Shown: piece after piece, positions 7,668-40,715 of the stretch
Layout: each line of letters opens with the position of its first letter
Position numbering within the stretch: the first letter of the stretch is position 1
Source: a virus
Lineage: Duplodnaviria > Caudoviricetes
Reading direction: 5' to 3' (one strand)
Virus record (IMG/VR): IMGVR_UViG_2757320919_000001
Span: 70,928-134,927 of that record
Length of the DNA stretch: 64,000 nucleotides
Notes under the pieces: generated by a model
Told to the model about the DNA's origin: nothing
Seen by the model: the letters and a program-made list of their open reading frames with translations, nothing else
Databases searched by the model: none
Program-made: the position numbers and the translations under genes

Positions 7668-7700
7668 ATTATATAATATTTATCCTTAAAATCAACTTAA
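7668..7700 (-). promoter_or_regulatory. host-sigma70-type promoter TTAAG-N6-TTAAG-N11-TATAAT (gp32)
   Basis: TTAAGttgattTTAAGgataaatattaTATAAT; same architecture recurs >12 times upstream of genes. Confidence 0.75.
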
Positions 7701-9317
7701 TTTAATCCAAACACCCTGACCACAATCCCACACTCTATAAAATCCATTCAATTTCATATTTTCTGATTCAGTCAAGTTTGGATCAAACTTCTCTAGTTTG
7801 TCTTTGAGTTTATGCTTCATAAATTGTTGCCTTGAATATGTCTTATTATTTTTAAAATAATAGTAACCAGGACTAGAATAGTGACTAAATGTAAATCCAA
7901 GCTTCAAATATATACTTCCATCAGAATAAAGTCTATCTGAGTAGCTTATTAGGCTTCCTTTGTTATGTTTATGAAAATAGCTAAGTAATTTGGAAGCACC
8001 ACCTATAACATTTGTGTTCTTCTTAGTACATAATCTAATTAACTCCCAATCATATTTGTCTGTAAACCTAGGTTTTCCAAAACTCATAAGACAAACTAGC
8101 TCATCTTGGTAACAGAGTCCATAACATACAGTTGATCCGGTAAATCCTTGGAGATGATTACTTTCTAAAAACTCTTTCTCTTCTTTTTTAGATACCTCTC
8201 TCAAAATGCATTTTCTAGCCATTATTTTCTTATACTTTCCTAGTTTATTGTTTATAATTGACTTCCATATTTCTTTTTTCTCTATCCAAGATGATTCAAA
8301 AATATGGAGTAATTGTATCCCTTTTTCCTTACATCTCTCTGTTTTATCTAAATGATAGTTCTTATCTTTTCCATTACTCTCAGAATGCCAGTAGTCTCCA
8401 TTACATTCAATAGCTAAGTTATGATCTGGTAAGTAGAAGTCTAGTTCTTTATCACCTAGAATCGAGTAGTCATTTTCTATATAATCATCTAGTAAGTTAG
8501 ATAATTCTTTTTCAAATGAACTAGTAGAAGGGTTGCATATAGGGCATAAAGTTATACCTTTTACAAAATTGCCAAATGTTCTCTTAAAAACATGACCTTT
8601 TGGACACATTAGTTCAAGATTATCTACTAAATCTTCTGAAACAACTTTATAACCAAAATTATTTAAATACTCTATTTTGTTGTTTATGTTACACTCAGGA
8701 CAAGTTGATATACCTTGTTTAAATACTCTAAATGCTCGTTTAAAAACATGCCCATTTTTACATTTTACTTCTAAATTATTTCCTAAATTGTTTGAGATGA
8801 CTTCATATCCTAAATTGTTTAAGTACTCTAGTTTCTCTTGCTTCTCACATATAGTACAAATAATAACACCACTTTCGAATACTTTATATGGTCTTTTAAA
8901 AATATGACCATTTTGGCATTCTACTGTTAAATCATTATTTAACTCTTTAGAAACAACTTTATAGCCAAGACTGTTTATAAAAAGTAGTTTTCTTTGTCTT
9001 TCACATTCATTACAAGTTAATTGACCTTTTTTAAAATTGTTTAAAGTTCGTTTAAAAGCATGCCCATTTTTGCATTTCACAGTCAAATCATTTGATAAGT
9101 TTTCTGAAATAACCTCATAACCTAATTTATTTAAATACTTAATATTTTCCTGCCGTTCACACTCAGGGCAAGCTGTTGAACCACTTTTAAACCTGCTAAA
9201 GGATCTTTTAAAAACATGCCCATTTTTACATTGTACTTCTAAGTCATGACCTAAACTATCCGATATAGTTTCATACCCAAGATTATTTAAAAATTCTATT
9301 TTATTATTAACTGTCAT
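7692..9317 (-). CDS. Hef-like endonuclease, 5 zinc-ribbon repeats + Vsr-like nuclease + GNAT-like domain
   Basis: CKNGH..CxxC repeats; ELDFYLP..AIECNGDYWH; WELIRLC..GGASKLL..ISYSDRLYSDG; WDCGQ. Confidence 0.85.
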   Translation of the reverse strand: MTVNNKIEFLNNLGYETISDSLGHDLEVQCKNGHVFKRSFSRFKSGSTACPECERQENIKYLNKLGYEVISENLSNDLTVKCKNGHAFKRTLNNFKKGQLTCNECERQRKLLFINSLGYKVVSKELNNDLTVECQNGHIFKRPYKVFESGVIICTICEKQEKLEYLNNLGYEVISNNLGNNLEVKCKNGHVFKRAFRVFKQGISTCPECNINNKIEYLNNFGYKVVSEDLVDNLELMCPKGHVFKRTFGNFVKGITLCPICNPSTSSFEKELSNLLDDYIENDYSILGDKELDFYLPDHNLAIECNGDYWHSESNGKDKNYHLDKTERCKEKGIQLLHIFESSWIEKKEIWKSIINNKLGKYKKIMARKCILREVSKKEEKEFLESNHLQGFTGSTVCYGLCYQDELVCLMSFGKPRFTDKYDWELIRLCTKKNTNVIGGASKLLSYFHKHNKGSLISYSDRLYSDGSIYLKLGFTFSHYSSPGYYYFKNNKTYSRQQFMKHKLKDKLEKFDPNLTESENMKLNGFYRVWDCGQGVWIKLS

Positions 9318-9323
9318 AATAAT

Positions 9324-9356
9324 ATTATATAATAATTATACTTAAAATCAACTTAA
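9324..9356 (-). promoter_or_regulatory. TTAAG-N6-TTAAG-N11-TATAAT promoter; ATG 6 nt downstream (leaderless)
   Basis: TATAAT attatt ATG with no Shine-Dalgarno. Confidence 0.65.
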
Positions 9357-10090: not shown

Positions 10091-10092
10091 GC

Positions 10093-10809
10093 TTATCCTA
10101 TTCTGTTATATAACTCTTCCATTGTTATATCTTCAATAACACCTGTTTTTTTATTTCTAACTGTAATTTTTGTGTCACCAGCTACACATTCATCAATAAA
10201 AATTAAATTAATACTAAGACCCCTAAAAGCATCTGGTGTAGTTGCACTAATATATGCTTTACATCCTATTTCATTAACAAATGACTCTTTATTATAAACT
10301 TTTACGGATGGCTTTAACCATATCGGTAGATCAGCATACATGTCCATTAATCTTTGTAAGTTCTCAGCAGCCATAGTAAATTTATTAGCACAAATACCAA
10401 CAATGGTATCAGGGCAAAAACATAATTTCCATAATATATATAATAAAGTTGTAACAGATTTACCACTTTGTCTTCCTGCTAATACAACATTGAATCTATT
10501 TTCATAATATTGTTGTATTAATTCTTTTTGATAATCTCTTAAGTCAGGATAAACTAAACCTTCATCAAGACTTCTTATTTTAACATAATTTTCCACAAAA
10601 TAGATAATATCTACACTACATTTTTGAATCTCTATTATATGTTCTTCTTTTAAAGGTAATTTAGTATTAATATATGAAAGTTGAGGATTATTACCATAGC
10701 TAACTTTTTGATTACTAATATCTAAAAAATATCCGTTTTCATCCTGTGGCAACAGTTTATTTAAATAGCTTATTCTATCATCTTTTAACTGCTGAATATC
10801 TTCAAACAT
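10093..10809 (-). CDS. gp17: terminase large subunit N-terminal half + N-intein fragment
   Basis: LRDYQ, AGRQSGKS Walker A, FRG..LIFIDE then CVAGDTKITV intein block A; own TATAAATA at 10835-10842. Confidence 0.9.
   Translation of the reverse strand: MFEDIQQLKDDRISYLNKLLPQDENGYFLDISNQKVSYGNNPQLSYINTKLPLKEEHIIEIQKCSVDIIYFVENYVKIRSLDEGLVYPDLRDYQKELIQQYYENRFNVVLAGRQSGKSVTTLLYILWKLCFCPDTIVGICANKFTMAAENLQRLMDMYADLPIWLKPSVKVYNKESFVNEIGCKAYISATTPDAFRGLSINLIFIDECVAGDTKITVRNKKTGVIEDITMEELYNRIG
10096..10188 (-). other. split intein N-fragment (31 aa)
   Basis: CVAGDTKITVRNKKTGVIEDITMEELYNRIG* directly after Walker B DE. Confidence 0.85.
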
Positions 10810-10845
10810 AAAATATAATCCTTATATTTTATGGTATTTATAAAG

Positions 10846-11978: not shown

Positions 11979-12187
11979 GATTATAATCCTTTCTTACCTT
12001 TAAAATGTAAAAAACATTCCAAATACAATTATTCCAATATTATAAAGTGATAAGTGTAATTATTTATATATGTTACTTTTTAAATTTATGTTATTGTATA
12101 ATAAAACTGCTTAAAATTATCTTAAACTAACTAAGCATAATTTAAGTAAAAATTATATATAATATGGAAATTACTTGAAAGGACATT

Positions 12188-13957
12188 ATGAATGTAACTG
12201 AAAAGTTAAAGTTTTTAAATGATTTAGGATACGAAGTTATATCAGAAAACTTGGGCAAACAACTACAGGTAAAATGTAAAAATGGTCATGTTATAACCAG
12301 ACAATTCTATGAATATATTCGTGGTAATACTGGCTGTGGCGAATGTGATTATCAGGCAAAATTAAACCTGATAAAATCATATGGTTTTGAAGTTATATCT
12401 AGTAATGTTGGTAATGACATGAAGTTAAAATGTGTTAATGGTCATATATTTTCAAGGGCATATAAAGTATTTGTTAAGGGCGCTACAACTTGTCCAGAAT
12501 GTAATACAAATAACATACTAGATCAATATAAACAATTAGGTGTAACATTAATCAACAAATCATCAAAACAACTTACTTTACAATGCAGCAAAGGTCACAC
12601 TTACACTTGTACTACAATAACAGCACAACACAAATGCCCCATTTGTATTAGAAATGAATATTCATCTTTTATGGAAGCACTTGGTTATGAAATTATATCA
12701 GAAAAATTAGGTAATGATCTTAGAGTAAAATGTAAAAATGGTCACATATTTAGTAGAACCTTTGATAATTTTAAGAATGGCCATAATACTTGTCCAGAAT
12801 GTGAAAAAATATCAAGAATACAATTTATTGAAAGTAATGGGTTTAAATTAATATCAGAAAATGTCGGTGCTAATATGGTTGTTAAATGCAAGAACGGACA
12901 TACTATACATAAGAAATACACAGCGTTTAAAGCACATCCAACATGTAGTATATGTCAAAGAAATGAGAGAATGGAATTATTAAAACAATATAATTTACAA
13001 CCTATTACTGATAATCTTGGTAATGAATTAATTGTTGAGTGTGAAAACGGGCATACATTTAAAAGATATTTCAACAATATCAAAAAAGGATCTACAAAAT
13101 GCCCTATCTGTTATCCATATATTAGTTCATTCGAATCAGAGATTGAAAACTTGCTAAGTGACTATGTTAAAAATGATAGGAATGTATTGAATGGTAGGGA
13201 GTTAGATTTTTATATACCATCAGTAAATTTAGCAATAGAGTGTAATGGAGACTACTGGCACTCAGAAAGTAATGGTAGAGGCAAAAATTATCATTTGGCA
13301 AAAACCAATATGTGTAATTTAAAAGGTATAAATTTATTGCATATATTTGAAAGTTCATGGGAAGCTAATAAGCATATTTGGATGAGTATAATCAACAATA
13401 AGTTGGGCAAATCAGAAAAAATAATGGCTAGAAAGTGTGTTATAAAGAATGTATCTAAGTATGATGAAAGATTATTTTTAGAAAATAATCATTTACAAGG
13501 ATTTGCTGGGAGTTCAATTTGTTATGGATTATATTTTAATAATGAGTTAGTTTGTTTAATGAGTTTTGGTAAACCAAGATTTACTAACAAATATGATTGG
13601 GAGTTGATCAGGCTATGTACAAAAATGGGATTAAACATTATAGGTGGTGCTAGTAAGTTACTTAGTTGTTTTCATAAAAATCACCCAGGCTCATTAATAA
13701 GTTATTCAGATAGGCTATATTCTGATGGTTCTGTTTATAAACAATTGGGATTCGAATTTAGCCACTATTCAGCACCTGGATATTTTTATGTTAAAGGTGG
13801 TAGTACTTATACTAGGTATCAATTTATGAAACATAAACTCAAAGACAAGCTAGAGAAATTTGATCCAAACTTGACTGAATCAGAGAATATGAGATTAAAT
13901 GGGTATCATAAAGTATGGGATTGCGGTCAAGGTGTTTGGGTAAAGGATATTAAATGA
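12188..13957 (+). CDS. Hef-like endonuclease, 6 zinc-ribbon repeats
   Basis: same architecture as 7692 paralog. Confidence 0.85.
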   Translation: MNVTEKLKFLNDLGYEVISENLGKQLQVKCKNGHVITRQFYEYIRGNTGCGECDYQAKLNLIKSYGFEVISSNVGNDMKLKCVNGHIFSRAYKVFVKGATTCPECNTNNILDQYKQLGVTLINKSSKQLTLQCSKGHTYTCTTITAQHKCPICIRNEYSSFMEALGYEIISEKLGNDLRVKCKNGHIFSRTFDNFKNGHNTCPECEKISRIQFIESNGFKLISENVGANMVVKCKNGHTIHKKYTAFKAHPTCSICQRNERMELLKQYNLQPITDNLGNELIVECENGHTFKRYFNNIKKGSTKCPICYPYISSFESEIENLLSDYVKNDRNVLNGRELDFYIPSVNLAIECNGDYWHSESNGRGKNYHLAKTNMCNLKGINLLHIFESSWEANKHIWMSIINNKLGKSEKIMARKCVIKNVSKYDERLFLENNHLQGFAGSSICYGLYFNNELVCLMSFGKPRFTNKYDWELIRLCTKMGLNIIGGASKLLSCFHKNHPGSLISYSDRLYSDGSVYKQLGFEFSHYSAPGYFYVKGGSTYTRYQFMKHKLKDKLEKFDPNLTESENMRLNGYHKVWDCGQGVWVKDIK

Positions 13958-15399
13958 ATGATAAAATAAAGTTTTTAAATGATTTAGGATATGAAGTAGT
14001 GTCAGATGATTTGTCCAAAAATCTTATAGTTAGATGTAAAAACGGACACGAGTTTAAAAGAAGGTTTTATGATTTTCAGCGTGGCACTATAATATGTATA
14101 CAATGTGATCATAACTCTAAATTATTTTATTTAAACTCATTAGGATATTCAGTAAAATCTAAACTAATAAACAATGACCTAGAAGTTATATGTAAAAATG
14201 GACATTCTTTTAAGCGTGCATGGAGTGAGTTTAAAAATGGAAATATAAAATGTGCAATGTGTTATGAACAGCACAAAATAGACTTTTTAAACAAACTTGG
14301 ATACACAATACTTGATATTAATAAAATTAAAGTAAAATGTAAACATGGACATGTTTTTGATAGAGTATGGAGTCATTTTAACAGTGGAGTGGTAGAGTGT
14401 AAACAATGCAAGAATAGTATAAAAATAGAATATATGAAGCTTGCAGAGCTTGAACCAATTAGTGAAAATATAGCTGATGGTTTAGAATTAAAATGTAAAA
14501 ATGGGCATGTTTTTAAAAGAACATTTAGTAATCTAAAGAAATGTAATGTATGCCCTATATGTCACTCTAATATTAGCTCATTTGAAAAAGAATTAAAAGA
14601 AATACTCCCAAAATGTATAGAAAATGATTACTCAGTACTAGGTGATAAAGAACTAGATTTTTATTTGCCAGAATATAACTTAGCAATAGAATGTAATGGT
14701 GATTACTGGCATTCTGAGCAAATGGGTAAAAATAATAGTTATCATTTGGATAAAACAGAAAAGTGTAGGGAGAAAGGAATTCAGCTTTTACAAATATTCG
14801 AGTCATCTTGGATAGAGAAAAAAGATATATGGAAGTCAATTATAAACAACAAATTAGGAAAATCAAAAAAGATAATGGCTAGAAAATGCATTTTAAAAGA
14901 AGTACCTAAGACAGAAGAGAAAGAGTTTTTAGACACAAATCATCTCCAAGGATTTACTGGATCAACTGTGTGTTATGGACTTTATTACCAAGATGAATTA
15001 GTTTGCTTAATGTCATTCGGAAAACCTAGATTTACAGGTAGGTATGACTGGGAGTTAATTAGATTATGTACTAAGAAGAACACAAATGTTATAGGTGGTG
15101 CTTCTAAATTACTTAGTTATTTCCATAAAAATAATAAAGGTAGTATTATTAGTTACTCAGATAGACTTTACTCTGATGGATCAATTTATAAACAATTAGG
15201 GTTCGAATTTAGTCATTATTCAGCACCTGGATATTTTTATTGTAAAAACAAAATAAAGTATCCAAGACAACAATTTATGAAACATAAACTCAAAGACAAG
15301 CTAGAGAAATTTGATCCAAACTTGACTGAATCAGAGAATATGAGATTAAATGGGTATCATAAAGTATGGGATTGTGGGCAAGGGGTATGGGTTAAATAG
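13954..15399 (+). CDS. Hef-like endonuclease, 4 zinc-ribbon repeats
   Basis: same architecture; ATGA overlap with previous copy. Confidence 0.85.
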   Translation: MNDKIKFLNDLGYEVVSDDLSKNLIVRCKNGHEFKRRFYDFQRGTIICIQCDHNSKLFYLNSLGYSVKSKLINNDLEVICKNGHSFKRAWSEFKNGNIKCAMCYEQHKIDFLNKLGYTILDINKIKVKCKHGHVFDRVWSHFNSGVVECKQCKNSIKIEYMKLAELEPISENIADGLELKCKNGHVFKRTFSNLKKCNVCPICHSNISSFEKELKEILPKCIENDYSVLGDKELDFYLPEYNLAIECNGDYWHSEQMGKNNSYHLDKTEKCREKGIQLLQIFESSWIEKKDIWKSIINNKLGKSKKIMARKCILKEVPKTEEKEFLDTNHLQGFTGSTVCYGLYYQDELVCLMSFGKPRFTGRYDWELIRLCTKKNTNVIGGASKLLSYFHKNNKGSIISYSDRLYSDGSIYKQLGFEFSHYSAPGYFYCKNKIKYPRQQFMKHKLKDKLEKFDPNLTESENMRLNGYHKVWDCGQGVWVK

Positions 15400-15414
15400 A
15401 ATGAAGGATAAAAA

Positions 15415-17238
15415 ATGACATTAGATGAGAAAATAGAATTTATTAAAAGTGTTGGGTTTGATATTATTGCACATAAGTCTAATAGTATAACATTACAATG
15501 TAATTATGGGCATGTTTTTAACAAGAAAGTAAGCAATATCATACCAAACACAAATATAATTTGTGATAAATGTGTTGTTATGTCTAAAGAAAAAACACTA
15601 AGGGAACTTGGATTTACACCTTTGTTAATAAACGGTGATAAATGCACTGTAAAATGTGATAAATGTAATCACATTTTTAATAGAACTTGGTATGCTTTTA
15701 ATACTCGTAAAAACACAAAGTGCCCTGAATGTGTTGAAGCAGAAAGATGGAATAACATAAATTTCCATTTAAATAACATGAAAGTGTCATACATTTCTGA
15801 TATACAAGGTAATTATACATTACAATGTAAAAATGGTCATATTTTTAAACAAGGTATAGCAGAAATCATTAAAGAAGTTGGATGTTATCAGTGTGAAGTA
15901 GAATACAGAAAAGAGTATATAAGGAATCTTAATTTTACTATTATTGAATATAATAGTAAAATATTCAATGTGAAATGCAATAAATGTAATCATGTTTTTA
16001 TTAGAGACTGGAATGGCTTTTATAATAGAAAATATACAACATGTCCTAATTGTATAGAAATAGAAAAGAAAAACCTAGCTAAAAAGCATGGATTTACTCT
16101 CACTGACACAAAATGTGATAATGACACAAGAGAGTTTATATGTGATAAATGTAATACAACATTTAAAAGAGGGTGGTCAAGTTTTACATCAAGAGGGAAT
16201 AAGGAATGCTATAATTGCAAGCAACTCAGTAGAATAAATTTAGCAAAGTCATATGGGTTGGATATCATAAATGAAAATATTACTTCAAAATATACTTTTA
16301 AATGTGATAAGGGACATGTTTTTGAAAGACCTTTCACTGTTGTAGAAAATAAAAATCAAACAAAATGCCCTATTTGTTACCCTAGAACCTCAAACTTTGA
16401 AATAGAGGTTAAAAATTTCTTAACAGAATTATGTATAAAATATATCCAAAATGACAGAAATATATTAGATGGATTAGAATTAGATTTTTATTTACCAGAT
16501 TATAATCTAGCAATTGAATGTAATGGAGATTACTGGCATTCGGATAGTGTTATTAGTGATAAAAAATACCATTTAAATAAAACTCTGAAGTGTAATTCAC
16601 AAGAAATACAATTATTACACATATTTGAAAGTAACTGGATAAAGAATAGAAACATTTGGGAATCTATTATTAAAAATAAATTAGGGTTGAGCTTTAAAAT
16701 ATATGCTAGAAAATGTGAAATTAAAGAAGTTAATAAAATAGAGGAAAAAGAATTTCTTAATAAAAACCATTTGCAAGGATTTACTGGTTCTGCTGTTTGT
16801 TATGGGCTATATTACCAAAATGAACTTGTTGAACTTATGTCATTTGGTAGATCAAGATTTAATAAAAACATATCATGGGAATTGATAAGGTTATGCACTA
16901 AAATAAATGTTAATGTAATAGGTGGTGCATCTAGGTTATTGAAGATATTTGAAAACAATTATCCAAACCAGACCTTATTATCTTATTCTAATAACTTATA
17001 TTCTAATGGTAAAATATACAATACATTAGGGTTTGAGTTTAGTCACACATCTAGTCCAGGTTATTTTTACTATAAGAATGGTATGACTTATGACAGACAA
17101 CAATTTATGAAGCATAAACTTAATAGTAAATTAGAAAAGTTTGATCCAAACTTGACTGAATCAGAAAATATGAAATTGAATGGATTTTATAGAGTGTGGG
17201 ATTGTGGTCAGGGTGTTTGGGTTAAAGGTAGCATTTGA
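15415..17238 (+). CDS. Hef-like endonuclease, 6 zinc-ribbon repeats (mixed CxxxH/CxxC types)
   Basis: same architecture, more diverged. Confidence 0.85.
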   Translation: MTLDEKIEFIKSVGFDIIAHKSNSITLQCNYGHVFNKKVSNIIPNTNIICDKCVVMSKEKTLRELGFTPLLINGDKCTVKCDKCNHIFNRTWYAFNTRKNTKCPECVEAERWNNINFHLNNMKVSYISDIQGNYTLQCKNGHIFKQGIAEIIKEVGCYQCEVEYRKEYIRNLNFTIIEYNSKIFNVKCNKCNHVFIRDWNGFYNRKYTTCPNCIEIEKKNLAKKHGFTLTDTKCDNDTREFICDKCNTTFKRGWSSFTSRGNKECYNCKQLSRINLAKSYGLDIINENITSKYTFKCDKGHVFERPFTVVENKNQTKCPICYPRTSNFEIEVKNFLTELCIKYIQNDRNILDGLELDFYLPDYNLAIECNGDYWHSDSVISDKKYHLNKTLKCNSQEIQLLHIFESNWIKNRNIWESIIKNKLGLSFKIYARKCEIKEVNKIEEKEFLNKNHLQGFTGSAVCYGLYYQNELVELMSFGRSRFNKNISWELIRLCTKINVNVIGGASRLLKIFENNYPNQTLLSYSNNLYSNGKIYNTLGFEFSHTSSPGYFYYKNGMTYDRQQFMKHKLNSKLEKFDPNLTESENMKLNGFYRVWDCGQGVWVKGSI

Positions 17239-17249: not shown

Positions 17250-17252
17250 TAT

Positions 17253-24906: not shown

Positions 24907-25989
24907 ATGGATAAATTAGAATATTTAAAATCATTAGGATATAACTTATTATCTGTTGAAGGTTCTTATGTAAAAGTCGAGTGTAAAAATAAACATATAT
25001 TTAGACGGGCTTTTGCATCATTTAAAATCAGAAATACACCATGTCCAGAATGTGAAATAGAAAATAGAAAACAATTTTTAGATAGCATAAATTATTCCCT
25101 TATTAGTATAAACGGTAGAAAAGTAGAAGTTAAATGCAAAACATGCAATACTATATTTTCAAAAGAATACTGCAACTTTAAGCAAGGTAAAATTACATGT
25201 AATTACTGTGAAACTAATAATAAAATAGAATATATACAATCACTAGGGTATAATGTTATTGATTTTGAGTCAAAAGGGTATATAAAGATACAATGTAAGC
25301 ATAATCATATTTTCAGTAGAGCATATAACTCACTAAAAAATGGATTTATATCTTGTCCATATTGTGAACATGAGCAAAGAGAAACATTTTTTAAACTCAT
25401 AAATTTAGAATTAATAACTTTTGATAAAGGTAAGATAACTGCTAAATGTAAGAAAAACCATATTTTTGATAGAACATATGGTTCATTCAAAAGAGGAAGT
25501 ACATTATGCCCTATATGTTATCCAAAAAGTAGCTCATTTGAAAAGGAAGTAAAGAATATTCTACCTAAAAATGTAATTGTAAATAACAGAACTGTATTAG
25601 ATGGTAAAGAACTTGATTTTTATCTGCCAGAATATAATCTAGCTATTGAGTGTAATGGAGACTATTGGCATTCTGAGCAAATGGGTAAAGACAAAAACTA
25701 TCATTTAGAAAAAAGTTTAAAGTGTATCAATAAAGGAATTTATTTAATTCATATATTTGAAAGTAAATGGTATTCTAACAAACAATTTTATATAAATTTA
25801 ATAAAAAATCACATTGATGGTATAATTAAAGACTATCCTAATAAAATTATATCTGATATCTCTTGTGAAAATCAACTAATGTTCCCAAAACTAGGTTACA
25901 AACTTGTTGATAATGTTGAACCTAATTTTGAAATATTTCAGAACACACTAAAAGTATACAATTGCGGATATAATATTTGGTTAAAATAG
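24907..25989 (+). CDS. short Hef-like endonuclease, 4 zinc ribbons, most of GNAT domain deleted
   Basis: zinc repeats + ELDFYLPEYNLAIECNGDYWH retained; C-terminus collapsed to ..YNCGYNIWLK. Confidence 0.8.
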   Translation: MDKLEYLKSLGYNLLSVEGSYVKVECKNKHIFRRAFASFKIRNTPCPECEIENRKQFLDSINYSLISINGRKVEVKCKTCNTIFSKEYCNFKQGKITCNYCETNNKIEYIQSLGYNVIDFESKGYIKIQCKHNHIFSRAYNSLKNGFISCPYCEHEQRETFFKLINLELITFDKGKITAKCKKNHIFDRTYGSFKRGSTLCPICYPKSSSFEKEVKNILPKNVIVNNRTVLDGKELDFYLPEYNLAIECNGDYWHSEQMGKDKNYHLEKSLKCINKGIYLIHIFESKWYSNKQFYINLIKNHIDGIIKDYPNKIISDISCENQLMFPKLGYKLVDNVEPNFEIFQNTLKVYNCGYNIWLK

Positions 25990-26009: not shown

Positions 26010-27392
26010 TTATGAACATGACTCACATTCATGTTCTACACCATTATCTTTTTCAGACTTAAAATAGTATAGAGTCTTTAATCCTAACTGATGTGCATAC
26101 ATATGCAGCAGAGATAGTTTGTGAGAACTTTTTTGAATATAATTTAGTTCACCATTAAATGTATAAGAATACATATTTACACTTTGACTCTGATCCAAAA
26201 ATAATTGACGAACAGCTGCAGCTTTTATTAACATCATAGGATCACATTCCTGAGCTAACTTATAATATTGATTATATTCTTTAAACATAGGTGCTAATGT
26301 TTTAATGTTTATATTCCCATCTTCTTTATATAAAAGCTTTTGAATAGGTTCTATACTTTCTGATGCATTAATAGATCTTCCTGATGTGTTATGTGATATA
26401 CAACCATTTTCTAATAAATACTCATGAACATCAGGTACTTCAATATCCCATGTGTTACATAATACATCGGTATTATTTGATATAGATTTTATTTTAATGT
26501 TATTTGTTATAGAAACAATTTCCATACCTTTTTTTAAGTCTCTAGCTTCTATCCATTCCTCTATTCCACTGTCTAATTTAACTAGAAGTTTATGATTATA
26601 TGTTAATGTTAATATTGTGTTGTCTTCAAAAGTGATGGTTTTTGTAGGTTGTTTTCCATTAAACCAAATTCTATTCACTTCTTTCAGTCCATGCCTTGTT
26701 TGGACTTTAAATGGAACTTTAAAGTCTATCCATGAAGGTATTCCATAATTTTCTATTTCATTAAAATTAATACCTTGTTCTTTCATGATATCCTTATAAG
26801 ATTTAATACCATTTTCTGTTTTTATTTTTGTTTCTTTTGTTACACAAGCTGTTGGAGCAATAGCTGTTAAAGCACAATTTCGTAAACCATACTTCTTAAC
26901 ATCTTCCATCAGTTTATTCCATTTATTTTCATCAGGTTTAAACTGTATTAATTTTTTAGCTTTTTCATTTCCTATTAAATAAGGATATAAACCTTTGGCC
27001 CATTTTGTTTCATTAAAACCTTCTGCTCTTCCTTTTTCAATGGCTAACTGCATACTAGCTTTTACACAATTATATAATAACTCATCAAAAAGTTTTGCTT
27101 GAAACTCTAAACTTTCTTGTGAATCAATAATAATTTTATGTTTTGCTAATAAAACAGCTAAGTTAGATACACCTATTCCTAAATAACGATATTTTTTGTT
27201 AGCTGTTTGTGCATCTTTGACCATATAATAAGCCAGATCAATTGTATTATCCATTGTACTTACTATATCATATATTAGATCATATTTTTCTGTATCATTT
27301 AATAAGTCATACTCATGCAAGTTTATACTGGCAAGATTACATAATGCAATTTCACCATTTGTATAGGTTTTTACTACATTTATTTCATTCAT
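26010..27392 (-). CDS. nrdA: ribonucleotide reductase class I alpha subunit, C-terminal fragment, with intein
   Basis: GEIALCNLASIN, LGIGV, GLRN..AIAPTA, SIEP, DQSQS, GLKTLYY, C-terminal CESC. Confidence 0.9.
   Translation of the reverse strand: MNEINVVKTYTNGEIALCNLASINLHEYDLLNDTEKYDLIYDIVSTMDNTIDLAYYMVKDAQTANKKYRYLGIGVSNLAVLLAKHKIIIDSQESLEFQAKLFDELLYNCVKASMQLAIEKGRAEGFNETKWAKGLYPYLIGNEKAKKLIQFKPDENKWNKLMEDVKKYGLRNCALTAIAPTACVTKETKIKTENGIKSYKDIMKEQGINFNEIENYGIPSWIDFKVPFKVQTRHGLKEVNRIWFNGKQPTKTITFEDNTILTLTYNHKLLVKLDSGIEEWIEARDLKKGMEIVSITNNIKIKSISNNTDVLCNTWDIEVPDVHEYLLENGCISHNTSGRSINASESIEPIQKLLYKEDGNINIKTLAPMFKEYNQYYKLAQECDPMMLIKAAAVRQLFLDQSQSVNMYSYTFNGELNYIQKSSHKLSLLHMYAHQLGLKTLYYFKSEKDNGVEHECESCS
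26388..26846 (-). other. cis mini-intein (153 aa), +1 residue Thr
   Basis: CVTKETKI...LTYNHKL...TWDIEVPDVHEYLLENGCISHN|T; no LAGLIDADG. Confidence 0.85.
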
Positions 27393-27409: not shown

Positions 27410-27449
27410 TATTTATATTATATAATATTTTTACTTAAACTTTCCTTAA
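27410..27449 (-). promoter_or_regulatory. stacked sigma70-type and late promoters for the nrdA fragment
   Basis: TTAAG-N6-TTAAG-N11-TATAAT (27417-27449) and TATAAATA (27410-27417). Confidence 0.65.
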
Positions 27450-29316
27450 CCCATACCCCTTGACCGCAGTCCCATATCTTACTATATCCATTAATATTCA
27501 TATTCTCTGATTCAGTTAGGTTTGGATCAAACTTCTCTAGTTTGTCTTTAAGTTTGTGTTTCATAAATTGTTGTCTTGAATATTTTATTCCATTCTTAAA
27601 ATAATAGTAACCTGGCTTAGAATAATGGCTAAATGTAAATCCAAGCTTTAAATATATACCTCCATCAGAGTAAAGTCTATCTGAATAACTTATTAATGAG
27701 CCTGGGTGATTTTTATGAAAATGTTTCAGTAATTTACTAGCACCACCTATTATATTATAATCCATTTTAGTACATAATCTAATTAACTCCCAATCATACT
27801 TATCTGTAAATCTAGGTTTTCCGAATGACATCAAGCATACTAATTCATCATTAAAATACAACCCATAGCATACAATTGATCCAGTAAATCCTTGGAGGTG
27901 ATTTATATCAAGGAATTCTTTTTCTTCTGTTTTAGGTACTTCTTTCAAAATACATTTTCTAGCCATTATTTTGTCTGATTTTCCTAGTTTATTATTAATA
28001 ATACTAGTCCAAATATTTTTCTTTTCATTCCATGATGATTCAAATATATGGAGTAATTGTATGCCTCTTTCTAGACATTTGTTAGTCTTATTGAGGTGAT
28101 AATTTTTATCTTTTCCATTACTCTCAGAATGCCAATAATCTCCATTGCATTCAATAGCCAGATTATATTCTGGCAGATAAAAATCAAGTTCTTTGCCATC
28201 TAGTATGTTTCTGTCATTTTTGTTATAGTTTATTAATAACTCTGATATTTCTTTTTCAAATGAGCTAGTAGAAGGATTGCATACTGGGCATAATGTGCAT
28301 TTCTTAAAATTACAATATTCACGCTCAAAAACATGCCCTTTACTACATTGTAATTGTAACCTATTACCGTCTTTTAATAATTTAATACCAAAGGACTCTA
28401 TAAAAAGTTTTCTTTTCTCTTTGTCACAAATAGGACATGTTGTATTAACTTTTAATGTATTGAAGGCCCTGGTAAAAATGTGATCACTTTGACATTTTAG
28501 TTTTATACTCTTACCTAATGATACCAGTTGTAAACCATTTGATTCTATAAAATTCAATATATTTTCCTTTTGGCATGTAGGACAGGCGATACTACCATTA
28601 ACAAAATCGGAATAACTTCTATTGAAAACATGACCTTTGGAACATTTTACAACATTTGTTTTAATCAGAGTAAATCCTATTGACTTTAAATATTCCTCTT
28701 TCATATTAATAATACACTCTGGACAATTTACACTACCTCTTTTGATATCACAATATCTTCTAACAAAAGTATGCCCTTTGGAGCACTGTAGTGTCATTTT
28801 ATCTCCATCTGATTTTATTTGTTTTAATCCCACACTGTTTAAGAATAGTGTTTTTTCATCATTTTTACACTCAGGGCAAAATATTATATTTTTTGACCTG
28901 AAGCTAGAATATACTCTATTAAAAACATGACCTTTTTGACATTCTACTGTAAAATTATCTCCTTTAATGTCTTTTATAATATATCCTAAACCTTTAATAA
29001 ACTCTTGTTTTTCGTTGTCTATACATATTGGACAAGTAGTAGCACCATTTTTAAACTCACTGAATCGTCTTTTAAAAATGTGTCCTTTTAGACATTTTAC
29101 ATTATATAAATCAACAGCTTCAAACCCAATACTTTTAAGATAGTTTAGTCTTTCTATATTTTGACAATTAGGACAATCTACTGAACCATTTTTAAATGTA
29201 TAAAATGATCTTTTAAAAGTATTGTTACATTTATGACATAATACTTCAAGATTGTTTGTTAAATTAGATGATACAGGTGTATATCCAAGTGATTTAAGAT
29301 ATTCTATTTTATCCAT
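27418..29316 (-). CDS. Hef-like endonuclease, 7 zinc-ribbon repeats (start MDKIEY)
   Basis: same architecture; N-terminus identical to next copy. Confidence 0.85.
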   Translation of the reverse strand: MDKIEYLKSLGYTPVSSNLTNNLEVLCHKCNNTFKRSFYTFKNGSVDCPNCQNIERLNYLKSIGFEAVDLYNVKCLKGHIFKRRFSEFKNGATTCPICIDNEKQEFIKGLGYIIKDIKGDNFTVECQKGHVFNRVYSSFRSKNIIFCPECKNDEKTLFLNSVGLKQIKSDGDKMTLQCSKGHTFVRRYCDIKRGSVNCPECIINMKEEYLKSIGFTLIKTNVVKCSKGHVFNRSYSDFVNGSIACPTCQKENILNFIESNGLQLVSLGKSIKLKCQSDHIFTRAFNTLKVNTTCPICDKEKRKLFIESFGIKLLKDGNRLQLQCSKGHVFEREYCNFKKCTLCPVCNPSTSSFEKEISELLINYNKNDRNILDGKELDFYLPEYNLAIECNGDYWHSESNGKDKNYHLNKTNKCLERGIQLLHIFESSWNEKKNIWTSIINNKLGKSDKIMARKCILKEVPKTEEKEFLDINHLQGFTGSIVCYGLYFNDELVCLMSFGKPRFTDKYDWELIRLCTKMDYNIIGGASKLLKHFHKNHPGSLISYSDRLYSDGGIYLKLGFTFSHYSKPGYYYFKNGIKYSRQQFMKHKLKDKLEKFDPNLTESENMNINGYSKIWDCGQGVWVKESLSKNII

Positions 29317-30678
29317 TAATAAAGTGATCTCCAAAATATTTTAGGAATGATACAAAAATATAGCTTAAGAAAGGCTTAATTTAACCCAAACACCTTGTCC
29401 ACAGTCCCATATTTTACTGTATCCGTTTATATTCATATTCTCTGATTCAGTTAAGTTTGGATCAAATTTCTCTAATTTATCTTTGAGTTTATGCTTCATA
29501 AATTGTTGTCTTGAATACACTTGATTATTTTTGAAGTAGGAATATCCTGGTTCTGAATAATGACTAAATGTGAATCCTAACTGCTTGTATATTCCACCAT
29601 CAGAATATAATCTATCTGAGTAACTTATTAGGCTTCCTTTGTTATGTTTATGAAAATAATTAAGTAGTTTAGAAGCACCACCTATAACATTTAGTCCCAT
29701 TTTAGTACATAGTCTTATCAATTCCCAATCATACTTACCTGTGAATCTAGGTTTTCCAAAACTCATAAGACAAACTAGCTCATCTTGATAGTAGAGTCCA
29801 TAGCAAATAGAACTGCCAGTGAAGCCTTGGAGATGATTTTTGTTTAGAAACTCTTTCTCTTCTACTTTAGGTACTTCTTTAATAGCACATTTTCTAGCCA
29901 TTATTTTTTCTGATTTACCTAGTTTATTGTTTATAATTGATTTCCAAATATCTTTTTTCTCTGCCCAAGAATGCTCAAAGATGTGAAGCAACTGTATGTC
30001 TTTCTTTTTACACTTTTCTGTTTTATTTAAGTGATAATTTTTATCTTTAAACTTATCTGAGTGCCAATAAACACCATTACATTCAATAGCTAGTTTATGA
30101 CTTGGAATATAAAAGTCAAGCTCTTTATCTCCCAAAACAGAGTAATCTTTTTCTATATAGTTATCTAGTAAGTCAGATATTTCTTTTTCAAATGAGCTAA
30201 TAGAAGGGCTACATATTGGGCATATTTTAGCACCTTTTTTGAAGTTATGATAAGACCGTTTTATAATATGACCTTTTTTGCATATAACTTCTAAATCATC
30301 AGCTGTATTATCTGAAATTATTGAAAATCCAATATTGTCCAAATAGTTTGATTTATTTTGCTCACTACACATAACACATATTGAAATACCATTTTTAAAA
30401 TGCTCATATCTTCTTTTAAAAGTATGTCCATTTTTACACATTACTTCCAAATTGTTACCTAAATTACTCGATATAGGTGTATAACCAAGACTATTTAAAA
30501 ATGATATTTTTTCTTGCTTTTCACATTCTGGACAGTGTATAGTACCTCGCTGAAAATTGCCAAGACTTCGTTTGAATTTGTGCCCATTTTTGCATTGTAC
30601 TTCTAAATTACCTGCTAAATTAGATGATACAGGTGTATATCCAAGTGATTTAAGATATTCTATTTTATCCATTAATAA
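29260..30678. repeat. 63-bp perfect direct repeat at 5' ends of tandem hef genes (29260-29322, 30616-30678)
   Basis: identical TAAATTAGATGATACAGG...ATCCATTAATAA. Confidence 0.85.
29365..30672 (-). CDS. Hef-like endonuclease, 3 zinc-ribbon repeats
   Basis: same architecture; flanked by 20/21-bp direct repeat 29361-29381 / 30712-30732. Confidence 0.85.
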   Translation of the reverse strand: MDKIEYLKSLGYTPVSSNLAGNLEVQCKNGHKFKRSLGNFQRGTIHCPECEKQEKISFLNSLGYTPISSNLGNNLEVMCKNGHTFKRRYEHFKNGISICVMCSEQNKSNYLDNIGFSIISDNTADDLEVICKKGHIIKRSYHNFKKGAKICPICSPSISSFEKEISDLLDNYIEKDYSVLGDKELDFYIPSHKLAIECNGVYWHSDKFKDKNYHLNKTEKCKKKDIQLLHIFEHSWAEKKDIWKSIINNKLGKSEKIMARKCAIKEVPKVEEKEFLNKNHLQGFTGSSICYGLYYQDELVCLMSFGKPRFTGKYDWELIRLCTKMGLNVIGGASKLLNYFHKHNKGSLISYSDRLYSDGGIYKQLGFTFSHYSEPGYSYFKNNQVYSRQQFMKHKLKDKLEKFDPNLTESENMNINGYSKIWDCGQGVWVKLSLS

Positions 30679-30761: not shown

Positions 30762-30767
30762 TATCTA

Positions 30768-32165: not shown

Positions 32166-32195
32166 AGTATTTCTCCTTTGGTTAATATGTATTAT

Positions 32196-35455: not shown

Positions 35456-35462
35456 TTTCCTT

Positions 35463-35486
35463 TATAAATAATATCAAATATTTATA
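35463..35486. promoter_or_regulatory. overlapping divergent late promoters
   Basis: TATAAATA on + (35463-35470) and on - (35479-35486). Confidence 0.7.
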
Positions 35487-35496
35487 AAGGATACTC

Positions 35497-36932: not shown

Positions 36933-36958
36933 TCCTCTTAATATGATAAAGGAGAAAC

Positions 36959-37258
36959 ATGTATGAAGTACTAACACCAAATGGATTTAGTGATTTTGAT
37001 GATATATCAAGAGAAAAAAAAGATGTATATAAAGTAATAACAGAAGATGATTTTATAAAAGTAACAAAAGGTCATAAATTTGAAACACCTAATGGTTTTA
37101 AACAATTAAAACATCTTAAAATTAATGATTTAATAAAATATAAAAATAAGTTTTCAAAAATTGTTTCAATAGATTATATTGGGGTAGAATATGTATATGA
37201 TTTAATTAATGTACATAAAAATAACGAGTATTATACAAATAATTTTGTTTCACACAAT
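36959..37258 (+). other. split intein C-fragment (100 aa)
   Basis: VLTPNGF, VTKGHKF (block B), VYDL (F), SHN (G), Cys+1. Confidence 0.88.
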
Positions 37259-38287
37259 TGTGCGTTTATAGATAAATGGTCAGAATTTAGTAACTCTGTA
37301 ATACCTACAATATCCGCATCTAAAAAATCACAAATAATAGCAGCTTCTACACCAGTGGGGTTAAATCATTGGTATAAAATGTGGTCAGATGCTGTTGAAG
37401 GCAAGAGCTCATATAAACCTTTTAAAGTTGAATGGTGGAAAGTACCAGGTAGAGATGAAAATTATAAAGAGCTTATGATAAAAACTCTCGAGGGAGGTAT
37501 TAGAACCTGGAACCAAGAGTATGCATGTGAATTTATAGGAAGTTCTGATACTCTTGTTGATATGACTGTTTTATCTAATATTAAATTTGGAAATACTTTA
37601 AGAGAACCAAATTTTGGTGAAACAATAAGAGTATATGAAGCCCCACAAGAGAATCACAAATATATGGTTCTAGCTGATGCTGCAAAAGGTGCGATAGATG
37701 GTTTTGTATTTCATGTGATAGATGTAACAAATATTCCTTTTAAACAAGTAGCGTCAGGAAAAATACCAGAATCTTATTTGATGGCACCACCTATTTTTTA
37801 TAATATTTTAAGAACATACAATGAGGCTATGTTTGTATGTGAAAATAATGAGGGTGCTGGTACAAGCGTGGTTGATTTACTATTCCAAATGTATGAATAT
37901 GAAAACATATACCAAGAGCCAGATAAAAAATGGTTAGGAGTCAGGACAACTAAAAGCAATAGAAGTAAAAATCTTAGTAACATGAAACTTTTTATTGAAA
38001 ATAACAAATTGATATTACAAGATGAACCAACTGTTAAAGAACTGCTGACATTTTGTAATGTTAATGGAAAATACCAAGCACAAAATTCAAAAGCCCATGA
38101 TGATTATGTTATGGCATTAAGTCTTTTGTTTGTACCTTTATTAGATTTAAATAATATAGTTGATTACGATGTATTTTTAAATAAAATAAACGGTGATTCT
38201 GAAACAACTGATGGTGATGTAAAATATTTACAAATGGGATTTTTTGATGATGGTACTTCATCATTTTATGGTATTTTTGATGATTAA
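36959..38287 (+). CDS. gp17: C-intein fragment + terminase large subunit C-terminal half
   Basis: VYDL..YYTNNFVSHN|CAFI; ASTPVGLNHWY, QEYACEF, ENN..G, HDDYVMAL. Confidence 0.92.
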   Translation: MYEVLTPNGFSDFDDISREKKDVYKVITEDDFIKVTKGHKFETPNGFKQLKHLKINDLIKYKNKFSKIVSIDYIGVEYVYDLINVHKNNEYYTNNFVSHNCAFIDKWSEFSNSVIPTISASKKSQIIAASTPVGLNHWYKMWSDAVEGKSSYKPFKVEWWKVPGRDENYKELMIKTLEGGIRTWNQEYACEFIGSSDTLVDMTVLSNIKFGNTLREPNFGETIRVYEAPQENHKYMVLADAAKGAIDGFVFHVIDVTNIPFKQVASGKIPESYLMAPPIFYNILRTYNEAMFVCENNEGAGTSVVDLLFQMYEYENIYQEPDKKWLGVRTTKSNRSKNLSNMKLFIENNKLILQDEPTVKELLTFCNVNGKYQAQNSKAHDDYVMALSLLFVPLLDLNNIVDYDVFLNKINGDSETTDGDVKYLQMGFFDDGTSSFYGIFDD

Positions 38288-38316
38288 TATAAATATCTTA
38301 AAAAAGGATTATTAAG

Positions 38317-38538
38317 ATGCCACCTATTAAACATATGAATGTAGCTGATAGAATAGCACAAAAAAGATATAGAAAACAACCAAAAGTTAGAAGAAAACTA
38401 AAAATAAGAGCTAAAAAAAATGCAAAAGCTCCTTCCGAAAATATGTCATGGTCTTCTAAAAAGAGAGGATATGTTAGAAAAGATCCAAAATTAAGAAGAA
38501 CCATGAAATTAGTAGCTAAATTAAGAAGAAAGTCATAA
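38317..38538 (+). CDS. small very basic protein
   Basis: K/R-rich 73 aa; TATAAATA and AAGGA upstream. Confidence 0.65.
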   Translation: MPPIKHMNVADRIAQKRYRKQPKVRRKLKIRAKKNAKAPSENMSWSSKKRGYVRKDPKLRRTMKLVAKLRRKS

Positions 38539-38540
38539 TA

Positions 38541-39272
38541 ATGGGCTTAAACAAGTTTGATTCTGTTGATTATATTTTAAGTTCTGGACAAAGACCTTTT
38601 AGATATAAAGTATCATTAACTTTACCTACTAAAATAGCAAAAATATCAGGTGCTTTATATGATAATGCAGTTAATATATTGTGCAAAGGTACTACCTTAC
38701 CAGCACCTTCTATATTAACTACACCTGTTGGTTTAGATGGTAGAACTATAAACATACCAACATTAATGAAACTTGATAATACTACAAATATGATATTTTT
38801 TATAGATGAAAAATCAAGTGTAAGGCGTATATTAGAATATTGGCATTTTTGTATAGATTCAGGTATAACCGCAAATGAAGAAACACCATCAGTTCCTGGT
38901 GCTGGTGTTGCTAATATTGTAGGATCAGTTGCTAATATTGGAGCAGGTTTTATATCTGATATTACAAGTGATATACCAATTGTTGGTAATGCTGTTAATA
39001 GTTTCCTAGGTATAAATAAAGGTATAAGTGGTAATACTGATATTAATATGACTGGTGAATTGAAATTAACATTATTAAATTATAGTGGCAATGCTGTTGG
39101 AAGTTATACATATAAAAATATATTTCCTATTGATGTGACCGGAAGTGATATGCAAGATGATCAAACAGAAACAATTAATGAATTTAGCGTAACATTTGGA
39201 TATACACATTATGTATACAAAAAAGAAACAGAATCTATTATAGATGCTGTTACAGGAATAGTGGGGTTATGA
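38541..39272 (+). CDS. tail tube-family protein (gp19/gp54-like)
   Basis: RPFRY, LCKGTTLP, NIFPIDV, EFSVTFGY. Confidence 0.8.
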   Translation: MGLNKFDSVDYILSSGQRPFRYKVSLTLPTKIAKISGALYDNAVNILCKGTTLPAPSILTTPVGLDGRTINIPTLMKLDNTTNMIFFIDEKSSVRRILEYWHFCIDSGITANEETPSVPGAGVANIVGSVANIGAGFISDITSDIPIVGNAVNSFLGINKGISGNTDINMTGELKLTLLNYSGNAVGSYTYKNIFPIDVTGSDMQDDQTETINEFSVTFGYTHYVYKKETESIIDAVTGIVGL

Positions 39273-40715
39273 TTTAACCCATACCCCTTGTCCACAATCC
39301 CATACTTTATGATACCCATTTAGTCTCATATTCTCTGATTCAGTTAAATTTGGATCAAATTTCTCTAACTTATCTTTGAGTTTGTGTTTCATAAATTGTT
39401 GTCTATTGAGCGTTCTACCATTTTTTGTATACATGTAGCCAGGTTTAGAAAAATGACTAAATGTAAATCCTAACTGCTTATATATTTCACCATTAGAATA
39501 TAATCTATCTGAGTAGCTTATTAATGACCCTGGGTTATGTTTATGAAAATAACTAAGTAACTTACTAGCACCACCTATAACATTTGTGTTCTTCTTAGTA
39601 CATAGCCTAATTAACTCCCAGTCATATTTATTAGTAAATCTAGGTTTTCCAAAACTCATTAAACAAACTAGCTCATCTTGGTAATAGAGTCCATAACAAA
39701 TTGAGCTACCAGTGAAGCCTTGAAGATGATTTTTGTTTAGAAACTCTTTCTCTTCTACTTTAGGTACTTCTTTAATAACACATTTTCTAGCCATTATCTT
39801 GTCTGATTTACCTAGTTTATTGTTTATAATTGATTTCCAAATATCTTTATTTTCAATCCAAGATGACTCTAATATTTGTAAAAGTTGAATTCCTTTCTCC
39901 TTACACTTTTCTGTTTTATTTAAGTGATAATTTTTATCTTTAAATTTATCTGAGTGCCAATAAACACCATTACATTCTATTGCTAAATTATGTTCTGGTA
40001 AATAGAAATCTAGTTCTTTATCACCTAGTATTGAGTAGTCATTTTCTATACATTTTGGTAGTATTTCTTTTAATTCTTTTTCAAACATTGTATTATTTGG
40101 ATAACACTCAGGACATAAATTGTTTGATTTTATCAAATTATCGTAAGTTCTATAAAATATATGTCCTTTGTTACATTTAAAGATATTTTTATCAACTATC
40201 TCTAAATTTATATTATTCAATAACGATTTCTTATTATTTTCATCACAAAACTTACAAAATGTTATCCCACTTTTTAGAGTCGGGTAACTCTTTTTAACTA
40301 TATTATTGCATTTGTTACATCTCATATGATTTACATCAATTTTTGTAAAACCACATGATTTGATAAATTCTAGTTTTTCTAATTCATCACATTCTGGGCA
40401 TGATATTACACCCCTTTTAAAGTCTGCTTTATTTCTATTAAATATATGGTTATTTCTACATTGTATCTCTAATTTAGATAATCGTATATCAGTTACAGTA
40501 TAACCTAAATTATTTAATTCTAATAGTAATTTATTATCATCACATGATAAACATTTATTATATTTAAGCATTTGGTTCCAACTTCTTTTTATATTAGAAC
40601 CACATTTATCACATTTTACTTCTAACCCATAATTTAAATTAGAAGAAATGGGGGTAAATCCCCATTCTTTTAACATATTAATTTTATTTTGGTTCAACTC
40701 TAACAAGTTCATCAA
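39267..40715 (-). CDS. Hef-like endonuclease, 4 zinc-ribbon repeats
   Basis: same architecture. Confidence 0.85.
   Translation of the reverse strand: MMNLLELNQNKINMLKEWGFTPISSNLNYGLEVKCDKCGSNIKRSWNQMLKYNKCLSCDDNKLLLELNNLGYTVTDIRLSKLEIQCRNNHIFNRNKADFKRGVISCPECDELEKLEFIKSCGFTKIDVNHMRCNKCNNIVKKSYPTLKSGITFCKFCDENNKKSLLNNINLEIVDKNIFKCNKGHIFYRTYDNLIKSNNLCPECYPNNTMFEKELKEILPKCIENDYSILGDKELDFYLPEHNLAIECNGVYWHSDKFKDKNYHLNKTEKCKEKGIQLLQILESSWIENKDIWKSIINNKLGKSDKIMARKCVIKEVPKVEEKEFLNKNHLQGFTGSSICYGLYYQDELVCLMSFGKPRFTNKYDWELIRLCTKKNTNVIGGASKLLSYFHKHNPGSLISYSDRLYSNGEIYKQLGFTFSHFSKPGYMYTKNGRTLNRQQFMKHKLKDKLEKFDPNLTESENMRLNGYHKVWDCGQGVWVKS

Follow-up and report, generated by a model that had tools for sequence, protein, structure and literature searches.

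What do strings of small zinc-binding units contribute to a family of phage nucleases, and do they choose the DNA that is cut? The question is raised by eight paralogous genes (H1 to H8) on a 64,000-nucleotide stretch of DNA, here called the window, which comprises positions 70,928 to 134,927 of the 134,927-bp IMG/VR virus record IMGVR_UViG_2757320919_000001 (Duplodnaviria; Caudoviricetes). The window is A+T-rich (24–31% G+C) and shows 86–97% DNA identity with Campylobacter Fletchervirus-type phages; GenBank phages carry near-identical proteins under the annotation 'Hef-like homing endonuclease'. A first-pass annotation, made from the sequence alone, had described the genes as modular zinc-finger nucleases whose specificity is reprogrammed by swapping repeats with a hypervariable recognition helix. 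The fusion of zinc-unit arrays to a Vsr-related nuclease and the Hef assignment, both part of that description, are supported, the latter by the annotation of the relatives.

Our analysis indicates that the genes are likely to encode site-specific homing endonucleases of the Hef type from a Fletchervirus-type Campylobacter phage, in which the arrays choose the target. The proteins have a three-part architecture: a CapR/DUF4379-type zinc array, an EDxHD/Vsr-like nuclease and a Mom-like GNAT domain. The gene type is already known and annotated, and both repeated zinc-module arrays on homing endonucleases and their recombinational reshuffling are already in print. Added here are four residues per unit (the tetrad) that are unit-specific and frozen among orthologs, natural alleles with 5 and 9 units, arrays that are bound to their locus while the catalytic halves are exchangeable, and the Mom-like domain.

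Zinc-unit arrays and nuclease of the eight proteins

Scanning for the knuckle and CxxC pattern gave 5, 6, 4, 6, 4, 7, 3 and 4 units of 47–58 amino acids for H1 to H8, identical to the counts of the first-pass annotation and 39 in total. The whole genome encodes 12 such paralogs with 59 units. The genes and the domains of H7, the copy chosen for an AlphaFold2 model, are as follows.

7692–9317, minus strand: H1, 541 amino acids, 5 units (array 8535–9317), nuclease and Mom-like domain
12188–13957, plus strand: H2, 589 amino acids, 6 units (array 12188–13111)
13954–15399, plus strand: H3, 481 amino acids, 4 units (array 13954–14562)
15415–17238, plus strand: H4, 607 amino acids, 6 units (array 15415–16377), the most divergent copy
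24907–25989, plus strand: H5, 360 amino acids, 4 units (array 24907–25518), nuclease, Mom-like domain internally deleted
27418–29334, minus strand: H6, 638 amino acids, 7 units (array 28279–29334)
29365–30672, minus strand: H7, 435 amino acids, 3 units
30211–30672, minus strand: H7 zinc-unit array, amino acids 1–154, from the secondary structure of the model, net charge +8
29923–30210, minus strand: H7 EDxHD/Vsr-like nuclease, amino acids 155–250, from homology to PDB 3r3p
29368–29922, minus strand: H7 Mom-like GNAT domain, amino acids 251–435, from phrog_1384, Foldseek and VIA
39267–40715, minus strand: H8, 482 amino acids, 4 units (array 40104–40715)

The full set of zinc ligands (C, H or C, C, C) was present in all 39 units. 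Three cysteines are invariant in the alignment, and the fourth ligand is a histidine in 34 units and a second knuckle cysteine in the remaining 5. The near-invariant arginine in front of the tetrad and the aromatic residue at its second position, both pointed out earlier, were recovered as R in 33 and K in 4 of the 39 units and as F, Y or W in 33 units, and all 15 tetrads that had been quoted are present. The Pfam model DUF4379 ('probable treble clef') exceeded its gathering score in one of the eight proteins, H6 (30.2 versus 24.5 bits), and stayed just under it in H2 (23.3 bits), with weak matches to Zn-ribbon and DUF723 models in others. The Pfam CapR model gave no match to the eight window proteins at E ≤ 0.1.

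The H7 model has a mean predicted local distance difference test score (pLDDT) of 94.2 and a predicted template modelling score of 0.71; the H7 array modelled alone reached a pLDDT of 86.3. Each modelled unit consists of a long helix starting from the preceding CxxC, a strand, the C-x3-H knuckle and a second strand ending in F-K-R, followed by a five-residue helix and a loop leading to the next CxxC, which opens the next long helix. The tetrad forms the cap and first turn of the short helix (residues 36–39 in unit 1, where the helix spans 37–41). The earlier proposal that the residues after the conserved arginine begin a helix thus agrees with the model, and 'recognition helix' would be an anatomically fair name, but the predicted helix is very short.

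Net charges of the arrays range from +8 to +21. The charge is concentrated in columns 28–36, comprising the knuckle and second strand (+2.2 per unit), and in columns 41–47 (+1.3 per unit), which together flank the tetrad. The long helix after the CxxC, which serves recognition in the treble clefs of GATA factors and nuclear receptors, was considered as an alternative recognition helix and rejected: it has a net charge of only +0.22 per unit with Glu at three consensus residues, and its variable columns drift among orthologs, for example columns 4, 6 and 7 with 11, 12 and 12 nonsynonymous changes.

The nuclease domain matched PDB 3r3p (I-Bth0305I) with an E-value of 0.0064 in a single-sequence phmmer search and of 3.4e-8 over 91 positions when a profile of 123 homologs was used. 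Residues E170, D196, N208 and H213 of I-Bth0305I, whose roles were taken from PMC3239194, align to E162, D186, N199 and H204, each of which is found in 12 of the 12 genome copies, as is E197. D222 falls beside a 2-residue gap and is aligned with H214; this His occurs in all 12 copies and is conserved to at least 90% among the 123 homologs. The Pfam models MTES_1575 (33.0 versus 38.2 bits) and Vsr (18.5 versus 27 bits) stayed under their gathering scores, and DUF559 gave no match in the window paralogs. Judged by its sequence, the nuclease is a member of the EDxHD (I-Bth0305I/Hef) branch, and Taylor et al. had already assigned Hef-type enzymes to the EDxHD family (PMC3239194). The label 'Vsr/DUF559-like' given before was thus roughly right, the EDxHD family being the more precise placement. 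By analogy with I-Bth0305I and Mom, the half made up of nuclease and Mom-like domain probably dimerises. The nuclease probably has sequence preferences of its own.

Selection on the tetrad and remodelling of the arrays

The first-pass annotation held that a hypervariable tetrad sits on a conserved scaffold. Over the 39 units, the tetrad columns have entropies of 3.31, 2.24, 3.43 and 3.09 bits, so that the tetrad does differ between units. Five columns outside it are equally variable (3.59, 3.40, 3.28, 3.22 and 3.19 bits), and a scaffold in which only the tetrad varies is therefore an overstatement. Extending the count to the 59 units of the genome gave the same pattern, with 3.5 bits in columns 45 and 47; overall, 5–6 other columns match the tetrad in variability. 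A wider set of 160 proteins supplied 420 distinct units with 212 different tetrads. The preferred residues are T/A/S/P in position 1, F/Y/L/W in position 2, S/G/N in position 3 and N/S/D in position 4, and 350 of the 420 units have an aromatic residue of the buried type in position 2. The tetrad is accordingly made up mostly of small and polar residues, not of the classic base readers R, K, H and E.

Changes among orthologs were counted at the codon level in 46 units, which fall into 10 ortholog groups of this genome and three relatives. Left out were H2 and H6, for which the three relatives have no ortholog, as well as three CP30A genes with non-orthologous arrays and three cut or shortened CPX open reading frames (ORFs). 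The counts and the ratios of nonsynonymous to synonymous changes per site (pN/pS) were as follows.

Tetrad codons: 3 nonsynonymous, 20 synonymous, pN/pS 0.03
Zinc-ligand codons: 1 nonsynonymous, 21 synonymous, pN/pS 0.01
Scaffold codons: 10 nonsynonymous, 53 synonymous, pN/pS 0.05
Other high-entropy columns: 57.5 nonsynonymous, 39.5 synonymous, pN/pS 0.28
Middle-class columns: 88 nonsynonymous, 64 synonymous, pN/pS 0.32

The tetrad differs clearly from the other high-entropy columns (Fisher p = 6e-5), and of all classes in the array only the zinc ligands experience stronger purifying selection. The protein level gave the same direction: in clusters of six paralogs formed at 90% identity, variation was seen in 7 of 112 tetrad cells compared with 26 of 159 other variable cells (p = 0.014). 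Diversifying selection on the tetrad was rejected on account of its pN/pS of 0.03. The entropy and substitution counts that had been proposed as a check thus uphold a unit-specific tetrad, but one under purifying selection. Being unit-specific yet frozen among orthologs, as would be expected of residues defining the function of each unit, the tetrad residues appear to behave like specificity determinants.

Columns 19 and 22 of the unit hidden Markov model (HMM), located in the loop before the knuckle strand, are likewise variable between units (3.3 and 3.1 bits) and change little among orthologs, with 2 nonsynonymous versus 5 synonymous and 0 versus 2 changes, respectively, although these counts are small. 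They may share the functional surface of the tetrad.

We then compared the arrays with one another and with those of related phages. Units of one genome are only 30–67% identical, the best unit-to-unit identity across paralogs being 33–67%, and recent exchange of units between paralogs was therefore rejected. In the pairing of best matches, last units pair with last units in 6 of 12 cases and first with first in 5 of 12, only slightly above expectation. Between closely related phages, however, arrays are remodelled, and the repeat shuffling postulated by the first-pass annotation holds in this form. At the H1 locus, 5 units are present here and 9 in CP30A (a gene of 744 amino acids). The two alleles are about 97% identical across the first 3.7 units and match through the LEVK of unit 4 before diverging at the following CKNGH, which places the break at conserved knuckle codons. 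At the H4 locus, CP30A carries a different, unrelated array between conserved 5′ and 3′ gene ends. In the CP30A record (L038), the remodelled genes lie around 46451–48685 and 53542–55362, and a different 7-unit Hef adjoins H5 there, whereas a 7-unit Hef adjoins H7 in this phage.

Besides the three related IMG/VR genomes, we examined 36 GenBank records of Fletchervirus-type phages for occupancy. The arrays are present in 10 to 34 of the 36, with H2 in 10, H6 in 22 (35 records matched the H6 query) and H7 in 34. The H2 junction lies inside a repeat of about 30 nucleotides coding for the first helix, which is common to H2 and H3, and the H6 junction lies inside the nuclease/Mom part shared with the neighbouring Hef. 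From these empty sites no clean target could be read, as both junctions are inside neighbour-shared sequence.

Synonymous changes per site (pS) amount to 0.46 for the nuclease and 0.54 for the Mom-like halves overall, compared with 0.07–0.30 for the arrays, and the catalytic halves exceed the arrays in 8 of the 10 ortholog groups, H4 and H5 being the exceptions. Synonymous divergence so far above that of the arrays indicates that the catalytic halves are exchanged among paralogs whereas the arrays are locus-bound.

We infer that the arrays bind DNA, that cutting is site-specific and that the genes home. The string of 3–7 zinc modules would lie along the DNA and provide every paralog with a long target of its own. 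In each unit, the basic knuckle, second strand and short helix would face the DNA, and tetrad positions 1, 3 and 4 would make the unit-specific contacts. The EDxHD/Vsr-like domain would cut nearby, probably as a dimer like I-Bth0305I, and repair from the gene-bearing genome in a mixed infection would spread or keep the gene. Recombination would swap nuclease/Mom-like halves between paralogs while the arrays stay tied to their locus, and at conserved scaffold codons it would occasionally add, remove or replace units.

Several points weigh against this mechanism. A Foldseek search of the PDB returned no solved structural relative of the array at E ≤ 1e-3, the lowest E-value being 0.063, and the highest Z that VIA-align reached among 48,161 chains was 3.8; hence no DNA-bound analogue is at hand to orient the units, and the tetrad face was taken as the DNA-facing side only from charge and conservation. 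The selection counts were obtained by greedy parsimony from 2–4 related genomes in each group. The variable occupancy of the loci is the only support, and an indirect one, for cutting near the own locus and homing. Since the H2 and H6 junctions both lie in sequence shared by paralogs, presence or absence there is explained equally well by homing and by recombination between tandem paralogs that deletes or duplicates a gene. Furthermore, tetrad residues are also typical helix-capping types, and their conservation might have a structural cause.

The last point leads to the strongest rival explanation, according to which the arrays are low-specificity DNA clamps or rulers that add only affinity and spacing, reading of the sequence at the cut is left to the nuclease dimer, and folding accounts for the conservation of the tetrad. 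I-Bth0305I provides a precedent, as most of its specificity is attributed to the nuclease dimer and its N-terminal modules are described as largely non-specific (PMC3239194). The abundance of N-cap residues (T/S/A/P/G/N/D) in the tetrads, the buried-type aromatic at position 2 and the lack of a DNA-bound structural analogue in the Foldseek and VIA searches fit this explanation as well. Interchangeable capping residues should, however, drift in orthologs, whereas the tetrad hardly changes while neighbouring variable columns do drift. The 212 distinct tetrads speak against mere capping, and locus-specific arrays combined with exchanged catalytic halves are the opposite of what would be expected if the nuclease carried the specificity. 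We regard clamping without target choice as unlikely.

The reading preferred here, target choice by the array, has a stricter form in which there is a true unit-by-unit code. Tetrad positions 1, 3 and 4, perhaps together with columns 19 and 22, would each read a short subsite, recombination at scaffold codons would rewrite targets, and the code would work on phage DNA carrying deoxyinosine for G. Such a code is possible, and it is the selection pattern of the tetrad that points to it; we consider it a tentative and rather doubtful extension. The idea of the first-pass annotation that the proteins might act on modified DNA is reasonable background, given that deoxyinosine in place of G has been reported for Fletchervirus DNA (PMC8713573).

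The Mom-like GNAT domain

C-terminal to the nuclease, a conserved domain of about 185 amino acids was found in 7 of the 8 window copies and 11 of the 12 genome copies. The first-pass annotation had correctly recognised array and nuclease but overlooked this third part, which is a fixed part of the family. The domain matches phrog_1384 ('Mom-like DNA modification protein') with an E-value of 4.3e-8. Mom of phage Mu (8bv8) was the top Foldseek match of the full H7 model (E 1.8e-6), and VIA gave Z scores of 13–14 to GNATs, including 13.4 over 155 aligned residues to 8bv8. As modelled, the domain has a GNAT fold and is closest to Mom.

The alignment to Mu Mom by hhalign is weak (E 0.075), and residue equivalences are therefore tentative. 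In this alignment, Mom R111 and Y159 correspond to R320 and Y362 in 11 of 11 copies, and D149 corresponds to D353 in 10 of 11 (N in H4). R151, which is essential in Mom, is replaced by Leu in 11 of 11 copies, with an Arg one residue earlier in 10 of 11, and S124 corresponds to Gly, with a Ser three residues later. H4 has N-N where the ten other full copies carry D-R. In H5, the core of the domain is gone and a C-terminal remnant of about 55 amino acids is left; the protein is conserved at 360–366 amino acids in the 15 cluster members listed and is under purifying selection. H5 is thus a natural test case for the contribution of the Mom-like domain.

These features bear on a second rival explanation, a single-chain weapon resembling a restriction-modification system, in which the Mom-like domain would modify the phage's own adenines at array-read sites and the nuclease would cut unmodified DNA of the host or a competitor. 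The same has been proposed by Iyer et al. 2021 for jumbo-phage fusions of restriction endonuclease and Mom (PMC7824862). It would account for a domain kept in 11 of the 12 copies, for near-invariant residues that tentatively match Mom E108/R111, D149 and Y159, and for a strongly conserved insertion where Mom has its essential insertion. On the other hand, all 11 copies carry Leu at the R151 equivalent, H4 is without the D149 equivalent, and H5, which is without the domain core, is nevertheless conserved; the equivalences on which the match depends come from the weak alignment. The report of deoxyinosine for G in Fletchervirus DNA does not mention adenine modification in its accessible text (PMC8713573). 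Taken together, we hold the weapon to be distinctly unlikely.

Reuse of the zinc module for transcriptional repression, as described for CapR and CasPRs (PMC8096241; bioRxiv 10.64898/2026.02.23.707548), would make some copies domesticated DNA-binding regulators that no longer cut, which is highly improbable given that E162, D186, E197, N199 and H204 are kept in all 12 copies and that purifying selection acts on the nuclease domain as well (pN/pS 0.15).

Relatives and genome setting

With a profile of the unit, 3033 representative proteins were retrieved at E ≤ 1e-3 and 741 at 1e-10; a single protein contains as many as 13 units. Narrow HMMs applied to the best 150 of the 3033 detected the Hef nuclease in 49 proteins, and 19 gave a match to the Mom-like domain. 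In 10 others that were sampled, the same units score as DUF4379 and/or CapR, with 9 of the 10 exceeding at least one of the cut-offs. Their tails comprise DUF2726 (one protein above the cut-off, two below), HNH (1) and MUG113/T5orf172 (1), and others have no recognised tail. This mixture of nuclease tails matches the pattern of nuclease-associated DNA-binding modules. Searching with the whole protein gave 4497 relatives, in which the core of nuclease and Mom-like domain is joined to N-termini of the DUF4379, DUF723, DUF7487, helix-turn-helix (HTH) or NUMOD type.

The enzymes share features with several known systems. With Hef of the T-even phage U5 and Hef-like enzymes they share the annotation of their relatives; U5 Hef reportedly cuts in the neighbourhood of the locus that encodes it (PMC3322345). 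I-Bth0305I (PDB 3R3P), the EDxHD prototype, has a homologous nuclease with equivalents of E170, D196, N208 and H213 and an N-terminal DNA-binding part; it differs in being intron-encoded, in having two NUMOD/HTH-like motifs instead of zinc units and in lacking a Mom-like domain. The CapR/DUF723/DUF4379 domains of the ICP1 T5orf172 enzymes, of PLE CapR and of CasPR are zinc modules of the same superfamily, but these systems have a GIY-YIG-like T5orf172 nuclease or none, and a CxxC...CxC arrangement compared with C-x3-H...CxxC here.

For PLE CapR, sequence-specific DNA binding that is lost in cysteine mutants has been described (PMC8096241). T5orf172 homing endonucleases are reported to bear repeated CapR/DUF723/DUF4397 zinc domains, whose number is altered by inter-repeat recombination and whose modularity has been suggested to diversify targets (bioRxiv 10.1101/2023.03.23.533998). 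The link between domain sequence and target of CapR-type domains is stated by the authors to be still open (bioRxiv 10.64898/2026.02.23.707548). Closest in layout are enzymes of group II introns in which 3–5 CapR/DUF4379/DUF723-like domains of about 60 amino acids precede an EDxHD/Vsr-like domain; the group is put at thousands of members and called 'a large unrecognized outgroup' (PMC12350094). Like the window proteins they have an array followed by a nuclease; they differ in being intron-borne, and a Mom-like domain is not mentioned in the accessible text of that report.

Towards the C-terminus, the closest likeness is to the jumbo-phage REase-Mom fusions, in which a GNAT closest to Mom is fused to a nuclease of the restriction-endonuclease fold (PMC7824862). 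Mu Mom (8BV8) differs from the window family, which has Leu at the R151 equivalent, as a stand-alone, Gly-tRNA-dependent adenine modifier (PMC13219725). Engineered zinc-finger nucleases and transcription activator-like effector nucleases are similar in that tandem small DNA-reading modules are tethered to a nuclease, but there is no homology and the zinc fold is another one.

Fletchervirus phages are reported to have about 12 putative homing endonucleases per genome (PMC10877375). In the literature on arrays in Campylobacter phages, our search, which did not extend to supplements, found annotation-level mentions and no analysis of tetrad positions or array alleles. Among groups of phage nucleases still to be studied, the family ranks with the largest, and the Fletchervirus set is a favourable test bed, with twelve paralogs per genome, 36 sequenced relatives, frozen tetrads and natural 5- and 9-unit alleles with units 1–3 in common. 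If their targets were mapped, the existence of a code could be asked directly, which matters for phage genome evolution and possibly for programmable nucleases.

Within the genome, the Hef-like genes are interspersed among core genes, including those for the single-stranded DNA-binding protein, terminase, thyX, sheath, NrdA, major head and tail tube proteins. The 90%-identity cluster of H1 includes the 'Hef-like homing endonuclease' of CP81 and others. The stop codon of H2 overlaps the start codon of H3 (ATGA, 13954–13957), and H4 starts 16 nucleotides past the H3 stop (15399–15415). The tandem genes H2, H3 and H4 are probably co-transcribed and perhaps translationally coupled.

The ORF at 26010–27392 (minus strand) encodes a C-terminal part of the ribonucleotide reductase NrdA (PHROG 84 positions 502–795 of 975) with an intein-like insert in its middle. 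The N-terminal part of NrdA is not adjacent, as the ORF is flanked by the Hef genes H5 and H6/H7.

The large terminase subunit TerL is encoded in two pieces located 26 kb apart on opposite strands, at 10093–10809 (minus strand) and 36959–38287 (plus strand). The first piece stops just past a Walker-B-like IFIDE motif and ends in a tail of about 31 amino acids that begins with Cys and resembles an intein N-part. The second opens with about 101 amino acids ending in SHN, followed by Cys, and resembles a C-part. From these sequence features, the two pieces look as if they carry a natural split intein whose N-part is short and whose C-part is long, an arrangement that we take to resemble the split inteins of metagenomic TerL genes.

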